Shown here piece after piece: positions 9,373 to 9,555 of a DNA stretch of 18,332 bases (the first letter of the stretch is position 1; every line of letters begins with the position of its first letter). The stretch comes from Acidobacteriota bacterium. GTDB taxonomy: Bacteria; Acidobacteriota; Terriglobia; Terriglobales; Acidobacteriaceae. The notes beneath the pieces were generated by a model. It made no database searches. It had not been told where the DNA came from and saw only the letters and a list, made by a program, of their open reading frames with translations. Made by a program: the position numbers and the translations under genes. Location of the stretch: NCBI GenBank assembly GCA_023441255.1, contig JAEZPW010000356.1, positions 1-18,332 on the forward strand, given 5' to 3'.

Positions 9373-9555
9373 ATGGAAAACACGAACCAATCAAACGCGA
9401 TAGTGAGCCGCTTTTTCAAGACAATCGGATTGATCATGGCGGATGTCTGGAACACGGCCCAGACCTGCGGTTTCTGCTGCGGCATCAGGTTCGATCGTGA
9501 AAAGCGCGGCGACGATATGCCCACCCCCAGCAGTTGCTGCGGCGTGCGGGTATAA
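9373..9555 (+). CDS. small cysteine-rich hypothetical protein (60 aa) with two CCG(I/V)R motifs
   Basis: ATG at 9373 is preceded by a strong SD, AAGGAG (9360-9365), with 7-nt spacing, and by the promoter candidate. Third-position GC is about 70% by my count, consistent with the coding GC3 bias expected in a GC-rich genome. Sequence: MENTNQSNAIVSRFFKTIGLIMADVWNTAQTCGFCCGIRFDREKRGDDMPTPSSCCGVRV. It ends 41 nt before hgcA. I do not recognise a family. Confidence 0.55.
   Translation: MENTNQSNAIVSRFFKTIGLIMADVWNTAQTCGFCCGIRFDREKRGDDMPTPSSCCGVRV

Follow-up and report, generated by a model that had tools for sequence, protein, structure and literature searches.

An unnamed two-CCG small protein family of Acidobacteriota, encoded beside arsenic-resistance genes and in some loci ahead of hgcA

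Here we report a comparative analysis of a small open reading frame (ORF), hereafter S, that precedes the mercury-methylation genes hgcA and hgcB on contig JAEZPW010000356.1 of an Acidobacteriota bacterium (assembly GCA_023441255.1), the window being the whole 18,332 nt stretch from position 1 of the forward strand. Comparison of homologous sequences establishes that S (9373..9555, + strand; ATG start, 60 amino acids plus stop) is a genuine small gene of the translated type and represents an unnamed conserved family with two CCG motifs. The company that it keeps suggests, at a confidence somewhat above even, that S belongs to ArsR-controlled arsenic-resistance modules of Acidobacteriota (Terriglobia) and not to the mercury-methylation genes. 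The role that we favour for it, held with the same measured confidence, is that of a thiol-based As(III)-binding buffer or chaperone produced when ArsR repression is lifted; S would then most probably be a new family doing a known kind of job.

The S protein translated from 9373-9555 (+) reads MENTNQSNAIVSRFFKTIGLIMADVWNTAQTCGFCCGIRFDREKRGDDMPTPSSCCGVRV. A first-pass annotation of the window had proposed an ORF of 60 amino acids at these coordinates, with its ATG, an AAGGAG Shine-Dalgarno sequence 7 nt before it, a promoter candidate at 9300-9329 and a GC content at third codon positions (GC3) of about 70%, and in substance these proposals stood. The Shine-Dalgarno sequence lies at 9360..9365 (+), and the candidate promoter of the S-hgcA-hgcB unit is sigma-70-like (TTGACA-18-TATAGT, 9300..9329, +) and agrees with the consensus at 11 of 12 positions. 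The GC3 of S is indeed coding-like, the exact value being 0.75 rather than 70%, against 0.67-0.72 in arsR, hgcA and acr3. The same annotation recognised no named family, which our searches confirmed, and supposed that gene callers miss such ORFs, which does not apply to S: it is annotated, as a hypothetical protein, in NCBI, JGI, ENA and Logan alike, and a public call from the family is HET8668923.1, a hypothetical protein of a Terriglobales bacterium.

The family comprises about 30 homologues in public data, 51-63 amino acids long, all of them named “hypothetical protein”. A word-indexed search of 5.8 billion proteins returned nine homologues of 56-102 amino acids (E 1e-35 to 7e-8), and an exhaustive hidden Markov model (HMM) search of 1.84 billion cluster representatives gave 24 matches to the S profile, of which 22 were genuine (51-88 amino acids); E-values with the family HMM ran from 5e-27 to 6e-6. 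Every match with a taxonomic label came from Acidobacteriota (Terriglobales, Terriglobia or unclassified Acidobacteriota metagenome-assembled genomes, MAGs). Users of the profile should be aware that a naive count of the family would take in P0011 and P0026, translations of tandem repeats (688 and 895 amino acids) that contain GGCCGIY and score E = 7e-24 and 5e-9, which we rejected as false positives. Two pattern matches were likewise discarded as spurious, one in L012 (Povalibacter) and one in L021, where the match lies off-frame of a large membrane-protein ORF.

Full-length alignment of window S with 27 other members gave a core alignment with a mean column identity of 45%, in which M1, C35, C36, G37, C55, C56, G57 and R59 are invariant. 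The members share a length of 50-63 amino acids and a signature consisting of an N-terminal amphipathic helix, the motif [FPY]-C-C-G-[IV]-R-[FL], a linker of 10-20 residues and the C-terminal motif [ST]-C-C-G-[VIA]-R-x-COOH, to which window S conforms. Its CCG(I/V)R motifs occupy residues 35-39 and 55-59, and the first-pass annotation was right to single them out as the key feature, both CCG triplets being invariant in all 28 sequences. The first motif, C35-C36-G37-I-R-F, is encoded at 9475..9492 (+), and the second vicinal pair falls in a C-terminal block, M49-PTPSSCCGVRV60 (9517..9552, +), that is invariant in the nine closest members; the stop codon always follows three codons beyond the second CCG. 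That annotation had also described five cysteines arranged as TCGFCCGIRF and SSCCGVRV, and all five are present in window S, but C32, the first cysteine of TCGFCC, is not conserved.

Codon-level comparison shows that both vicinal-cysteine motifs are under purifying selection at the protein level. Across 14 loci the invariant Gly, Pro and Arg residues of S are written with three to five synonymous codons. Mean pairwise nonsynonymous difference (pN) is far below synonymous difference (pS) in the C-terminal 12 codons (pN 0.09, pS 0.66) and in the first motif (pN 0.22, pS 0.79), so that the Ka/Ks comparison suggested earlier came out as purifying selection, strongest over the C-terminal block. When 18 homologous loci were translated in register, the S frame contained no internal stop while stops built up in the other frames, and it remains free of internal stops across identities of about 30-73%. 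A strong Shine-Dalgarno sequence (AAGGAG, GAGGAG or GGAGG) precedes the start codon in the homologous loci.

The genomic setting of S was surveyed at 17 distinct loci; most of the contigs are short, and the counts that follow are therefore lower bounds. One or more of arsR, acr3, arsM, arsC and arsI lie within one or two genes of S at 16 of the 17, arsR adjoins S at 14, and hgcA is downstream of S at six, leaving 11 without hgcA. In the window, L004 and L013, S and hgcA (with hgcB where the contig extends) diverge from arsR and acr3 (with or without arsC), and in L003 the contig begins at the operator and reads S, hgcA, hgcB. Elsewhere arsM precedes S and hgcA on one strand (L005), a layout that in L011 continues through hgcB, arsR, arsC and acr3. 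Loci without hgcA include divergent acr3-arsR with the strand downstream of S empty (L006/L007), divergent arsR with a YciI-like gene after S (L008), S followed on its own strand by arsR, arsM, acr3 and in some cases arsC (L009/L014, L015 and L023-26, with an S-arsR gap of 2 nt in L009 and L023), divergent arsR with an ArsI/CadI gene and sometimes an ArsN2-like gene after S (L010, L022), and divergent arsR, sometimes followed by acr3 and arsC, with an alcohol dehydrogenase gene further downstream of S (L016, L017, L027). In L019 a Sel1-repeat protein gene follows S, with no ars genes seen. No arsA gene was present in any S locus seen. As a separate observation, L011 (4981-9996 of the Acidobacteriota MAG contig CAVRWB010000020.1) places hgcAB inside a one-strand ars operon, a tighter integration than the divergent layout of the window.

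S usually comes first in its unit, preceded by a conserved promoter and its two palindromic CATATTCGC sites. Wherever it opens a transcription unit the same signals recur, namely ACATAT-TCGCC-TTGACA-AATATGT, a -10 box, (C/T)ATATTCG-N4/5-GCGAATA and a strong Shine-Dalgarno sequence, and the TTGACA-type hexamer is kept in the promoter-bearing loci, with one change in some. In the window, operator-like site 1 (CATATTCGCCTTGACAAATAT, 9290..9310) is an imperfect palindrome that encloses the -35 box, and operator-like site 2 (CATATTCGC-ATAC-GCGAATA, 9339..9358) lies between the -10 box and the Shine-Dalgarno sequence and includes a perfect 7-4-7 palindrome, TATTCGC-N4-GCGAATA, at 9341-9358; both are conserved upstream of S in other loci. 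The two copies of CATATTCGC in the arsR-S intergenic region are spaced 49 nt apart, and the pattern has four matches in the whole window against 0.14 expected by chance. These palindromes bear out, as operator-like sequence, the ArsR-type operator that had been proposed ahead of S. A consensus scan also found a divergent promoter candidate for arsR-acr3-arsC (TTGTCA-16-TATCAT, TG-extended; 9279..9306, - strand), whose -35 box overlaps that of the S unit; the region contains two promoter-like sites, compared with 1.0 +/- 1.0 in shuffled sequences. The ArsR proteins whose genes neighbour S make up one conserved clade with 52-84% identity to window ArsR, and its members all retain the CVC of helix alpha-3 and the CC of the C-terminus. 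The Terriglobia genome of L010 has a second, more divergent arsR, 36% identical, about 2.6 kb away (2798-3242) beside arsC/acr3 fragments, and a CATATTCGC site at 3234-3242 just upstream of it.

We favour a role for S as an As(III) buffer or chaperone because it is linked to ars genes and lies promoter-proximally behind operator-like sites, because selection centres on its four cysteines and their immediate surroundings, because its flexible tail adjoins a helix that could mediate docking or self-association, and because its S-S-C-C-G idiom recurs in the tail of ArsD and in the ArsM proteins of S-bearing clusters, which contain SSCCGS and TSCCGPSCC. Without metalloid, ArsR would sit on the two CATATTCGC palindromic sites, over the -35 box and in the 5′ untranslated region, and block both divergent promoters; As(III) would free ArsR, and S would be made as the first product of its unit. 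The amphipathic N-terminal helix could then serve in self-association or docking, and the flexible tail could bring C35/C36 and C55/C56 together to hold As(III) by three or four thiolates, so that S would either buffer As(III) in the cytosol or, as a chaperone working by ligand exchange, hand it on to ACR3 or ArsM. From sequence we infer that ArsR binds these sites, that the ligand is As(III), that S works as a buffer or chaperone and that it has a transfer partner. Since hgcAB is attached downstream of the promoter-operator-S module in the window, co-induction of hgcAB would be expected. An ArsR-controlled metal(loid)-binding peptide had been the fallback of the first-pass annotation, and the comparative evidence, through the ars linkage and the operator, now favours it.

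A number of observations weigh against this reading. The N-terminal half of S (mean pairwise pN 0.51, pS 0.64) and the linker (pN 0.57, pS 0.75) evolve near-neutrally, and four conserved cysteines in about 57 amino acids are few for a protein whose job is sequestration. Frameshifted copies occur in P0021, P0031 and L029, which may be pseudogenes or products of assembly or sequencing errors, and the S of L013 has ATA (952-954) where its closest relative, L004, has ATG behind an identical AAGGAG. The ATA of L013 could itself be a rare start codon, a sequencing error or the mark of an inactivated copy. In a divergent subgroup (L018, approximately 659-826, and L020, 256-426) the second CCG is replaced by C-T-C-[SH]-K-M-R-M, with the first motif, CCGIRFD, and the arrangement of promoter and palindromes kept; the short flanks of L018, L019 and L020 show no ars gene. 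The family is also rare and taxonomically narrow, and its function is therefore not a general one of ars systems. Resemblance to ArsD falls short of significance (hhalign probability 8.8%), and the structural model of S is of low confidence overall, with a mean predicted local distance difference test score (pLDDT) of 59.8.

The main proposal of the first-pass annotation was that S is a chaperone, component or sensor for HgcAB, capturing Hg(II) through its vicinal thiols and delivering it to HgcA or HgcB or sensing the substrate. Several facts would suit such a role: S stands 41-53 nt upstream of hgcA in six loci that span two HgcA lineages (84-85% and 57-58% identical to window HgcA) and two upstream contexts (divergent arsR and arsM), the stretch from S to hgcB has no terminator-like site, and the tails of HgcB (NNGCVSCDCG in the window, CGCSTGPTACA in L011) are rich in cysteine and do not have the vicinal CC cited earlier for HgcB of ND132, a pair that S could supply. 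However, hgcA is missing from 11 of the 17 S loci whereas ars genes accompany 16, and at least 7,813 HgcA clusters match window HgcA at E<=1e-60 against about 30 members of the S family. The synteny of S upstream of hgcA, which the first-pass annotation had suggested as a check, also failed in the three close HgcA relatives that we looked up (83, 76 and 68% identical to window HgcA), none of which has an intact S. In the closest, L029, arsR and acr3 are absent upstream, the operator sites have decayed, and an extra base, inserted ten codons ahead of the stop, has removed the second CCG of S and fused its frame to hgcA; because this insertion joins the N-terminal 50 codons of S to the hgcA frame, the 422-amino-acid “HgcA” called publicly at L029:3501-4769 is an artefact. 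In L030/31 (76%) a gene of the phosphoenolpyruvate (PEP)-mutase/isocitrate-lyase family stands between divergent arsR and hgcA, behind the same two CATATTCGC sites (L030:1031-1867, L031:437-1273; 278 amino acids, prpB-like at 90 bits, far below cutoff), and in L032/33 (68%) a 75-amino-acid PEP-mutase fragment (3254-3481) with one CATATTCGC copy stands between divergent arsR-acr3-arsC and hgcA, with hgcB following in some cases. Since the slot of S holds a PEP-mutase-family gene in these other hgcA loci, the promoter-operator module appears constant and its first cargo gene variable. We regard the capture or sensing of Hg(II) on behalf of HgcAB as improbable, and a dedicated HgcAB subunit or chaperone is not supported; since S adjoins hgcA in two HgcA lineages whose upstream contexts differ, a facultative functional link may nevertheless exist. 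We give equally little credence to the idea that two methylating systems share S as a thiol shuttle, S supplying a soft metal(loid) substrate (As(III), methylarsenite or Hg(II), for instance) to ArsM in part of the genomes and to HgcAB in others. If that were true, the layouts of L011 and the window would place the HgcAB of Acidobacteriota in the arsenic regulon, as an enzyme that naturally acts on a metalloid received from S, which would offer a direct handle on the physiological role of HgcAB.

Somewhat less improbable, though still unlikely, is that S is a partner or modulator of the associated ArsR clade, passing As(III) to ArsR or tuning its response as an anti-repressor or co-sensor, and not a component of detoxification. 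The arsR gene is the most constant neighbour of S, adjacent at 14 of 17 loci and directly after it in three arrangements, of which two have a gap of 2 nt; the clade itself shows good conservation and a C-terminal CC of its own, and S heads the derepressed unit. Yet S follows arsM in L005 and L011, with arsR three genes downstream in L011; we know of no precedent among ArsR systems; and sequence by itself does not separate a co-sensor from a buffer or chaperone. The extreme conservation of the C-terminal 12 residues and of the distance from CCG to stop, by far the highest in the protein, recalls arrest peptides, and S is nearly always promoter-proximal and sometimes 2 nt from the next gene, so that one might envisage a cis-acting leader whose invariant C-terminal MPTPSSCCGVRV-stop stalls or couples ribosomes and thereby controls the downstream gene. 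This we consider quite improbable: nothing follows S on its strand in L006/L007, the next gene elsewhere lies anywhere between 2 and about 317 nt away and the genes found there are unrelated (hgcA, arsR, arsI, YciI-like, alcohol dehydrogenase), RNA structure at the S-hgcA junction is ordinary (z = -0.46) with no Rfam match and no terminator, and the first CCG, which an exit-tunnel arrest motif 20 residues further on would not need, is equally invariant. The least credible alternative, to which we attach very little weight, is a chance or decaying ORF without function that travels with the promoter-operator cassette. The frameshifted or start-less copies (P0021, P0031, L029, L013), the near-neutral N-terminal half and the fact that antisense frames -1 and -2 are also stop-poor might be read in this way; against it stand a pN far below pS at both motifs in the presence of synonymous variation, a frame free of internal stops at about 30-73% identity behind a conserved strong Shine-Dalgarno sequence, and the retention of S in operons that lack the cassette (L005, L011).

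The As(III) buffer or chaperone reading draws on several known systems, of which smtB-smtA of Synechococcus, where an ArsR/SmtB repressor gene diverges from the gene of a 56-amino-acid cysteine-rich metallothionein, is the nearest architectural analogue of arsR-S. As in that pair, arsR of the window diverges from a small (50-60 amino acids) cysteine-bearing gene, with palindromic operator-like sites between the two. S differs from SmtA in having no sequence similarity to it, only four conserved cysteines and no histidine ligands, in its predicted architecture of a helix and a disordered tail instead of a zinc-finger-like metallothionein fold, and in having arsenic genes rather than zinc or cadmium genes as neighbours. 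In both ArsD and repressors of the AfArsR type, As(III) is bound by vicinal cysteine pairs, and, like ArsD of R773 (Cys112-113, Cys119-120), S is found in ars clusters and has vicinal pairs in a flexible C-terminal tail. There is also a local resemblance between GIPLDKVG-LAPSGCCG of ArsD, whose sequence was verified against an annotated arsD, and CGIRFDRE...MPTPSSCCG of S. However, ArsD has 120 amino acids, a thioredoxin-like fold and a site formed by Cys12-Cys13-Cys18, whereas S has 60 amino acids and no such domain; the BLASTP match between the two covers seven residues and that of hhalign 17 columns, and we therefore rejected homology based on this 7-17 residue tail resemblance and retain ArsD as an analogy only. 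Vicinal cysteines also take part in soft-metal ligand exchange in the C-terminal CC tail of MerA and in MerF/MerT. The vicinal pair of S near a free, flexible C-terminus resembles the MerA tail; unlike MerF and MerT, S has no transmembrane helix and no sequence similarity to them, and no mer genes lie nearby.

Structure prediction with AlphaFold2 (AF2) and the family alignment yielded a single helix at residues 5-31, the amphipathic alpha-helix encoded at 9385..9465 (+), with mean pLDDT of 78 for residues 11-20 and 72 for residues 21-30; the cysteine-bearing tail, modelled with low confidence, is presumably disordered. The hydrophobic moment of the helix is 0.40-0.77 across the family, usually 2-3.8 standard deviations above shuffled sequences. 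The helix carries charged residues, and no member exceeds 1.38 in its highest Kyte-Doolittle mean over 19 residues, hydropathy that rules out a transmembrane or signal-peptide reading and, the helix being too polar, a membrane transporter of the MerF/MerT/MerC type. Scans of window S and 26 members singly against Pfam and NCBIfam at E<=10 gave only chance matches (Tetraspanin CCG, DksA and others), a profile search of the PDB with S gave no match below E = 1, and no Rfam family matched the S region. On these results a bacterial metallothionein of the SmtA/BmtA kind was rejected (no Pfam match at E<=10 among the 26 members, which have 4-6 cysteines in 51-63 amino acids), as were a tetraspanin CCG or heterodisulfide-reductase CCG domain (weak chance Tetraspanin matches in three members, best E = 0.014, and none to the CCG domain), membership of the ArsD family (no Pfam or NCBIfam match, and hhalign columns confined to the tail) and an RNA element at S (no Rfam match and the ordinary junction fold given above).

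The presence of ars genes beside hgcAB in diverse methylators and the control of hgcAB by ArsR are already described in earlier work (10.1101/2022.10.17.512643; PMC7438021; PMC10349881). As with arsR2-hgcAB of Pseudodesulfovibrio mercurii ND132, hgcAB of the window adjoins ars genes and is probably ArsR-controlled; in ND132, however, arsR lies directly upstream of hgcAB and is co-transcribed with it, whereas in the window arsR is divergent and S comes first. No small cysteine-rich ORF between arsR and hgcA was found in the passages of these three sources to which term searches led, and full-text literature searches turned up no description of a two-CCG small protein. A “putative regulator” that PMC7438021 reports from 112 genomes, also upstream of hgcAB, is by its spread too common to be the S family by a wide margin.

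S is thus offered as a candidate new ars gene, an unnamed small-protein family without a Pfam, NCBIfam or PDB entry in Acidobacteria, a dominant phylum of soil and peat. Its chemistry, the binding of soft metalloids by vicinal thiols, will not surprise specialists, and its importance would rise only if S were to link arsenic sensing or handling biochemically to HgcAB. The regulatory cassette made up of the promoter, the two palindromic sites and S appears to drive varied cargo (hgcAB, arsR-arsM-acr3 or arsI), and the As(III) buffer or chaperone reading predicts that hgcAB is arsenite-inducible in these organisms. On a practical level, a 60-amino-acid, four-cysteine peptide would provide a cheap test of the biochemical basis for the known genomic link between arsenic and mercury.

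The neighbours of S in the window were assigned by profile matches, which upheld the ArsR, HgcA and HgcB assignments of the first-pass annotation. The arsR gene (8845..9258, - strand) encodes an ArsR/SmtB metalloregulator of 137 amino acids with CVC in helix alpha-3 and a C-terminal CC (NF033788, 84.6 bits, cutoff 55), and is followed on the same strand by acr3, an arsenite efflux permease (7752..8843, -, start uncertain; SBF, 213 bits), and by arsC, an arsenate reductase of the low-molecular-weight protein tyrosine phosphatase type (7321..7743, -; LMWPc, 72 bits). The acr3 orthologue of L006 matched TIGR00832. Taken from a GTG at 8924, the longest acr3 ORF shares 80 nt (8845-8924) with the 3′ end of arsR, and the true start is uncertain because public calls begin later (341 or 363 amino acids). 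On the other strand, hgcA (9597..10637, +; NF040863, 416 bits, cutoff 275) begins 41 nt past the stop codon of S and is followed by hgcB (10651..10926, +; NF040864, 102 bits, cutoff 99). No terminator-like site was found between 9000 and 11200 of the window, and the placing of S as first gene of the hgcAB unit thus holds there by position. Elsewhere in the window, the long ORFs at 264-1229, 1013-1597, 2517-2993, 3989-5248 and 16624-17370 have no Pfam match at E<=1e-4, and because of opposite-strand overlaps between them the coding frame is unsettled for some. A hybrid sensor kinase with PAS, HisKA, HATPase and receiver domains (11102-12874, - strand) converges on the end of hgcB, and the same gene also comes after hgcB in L001.

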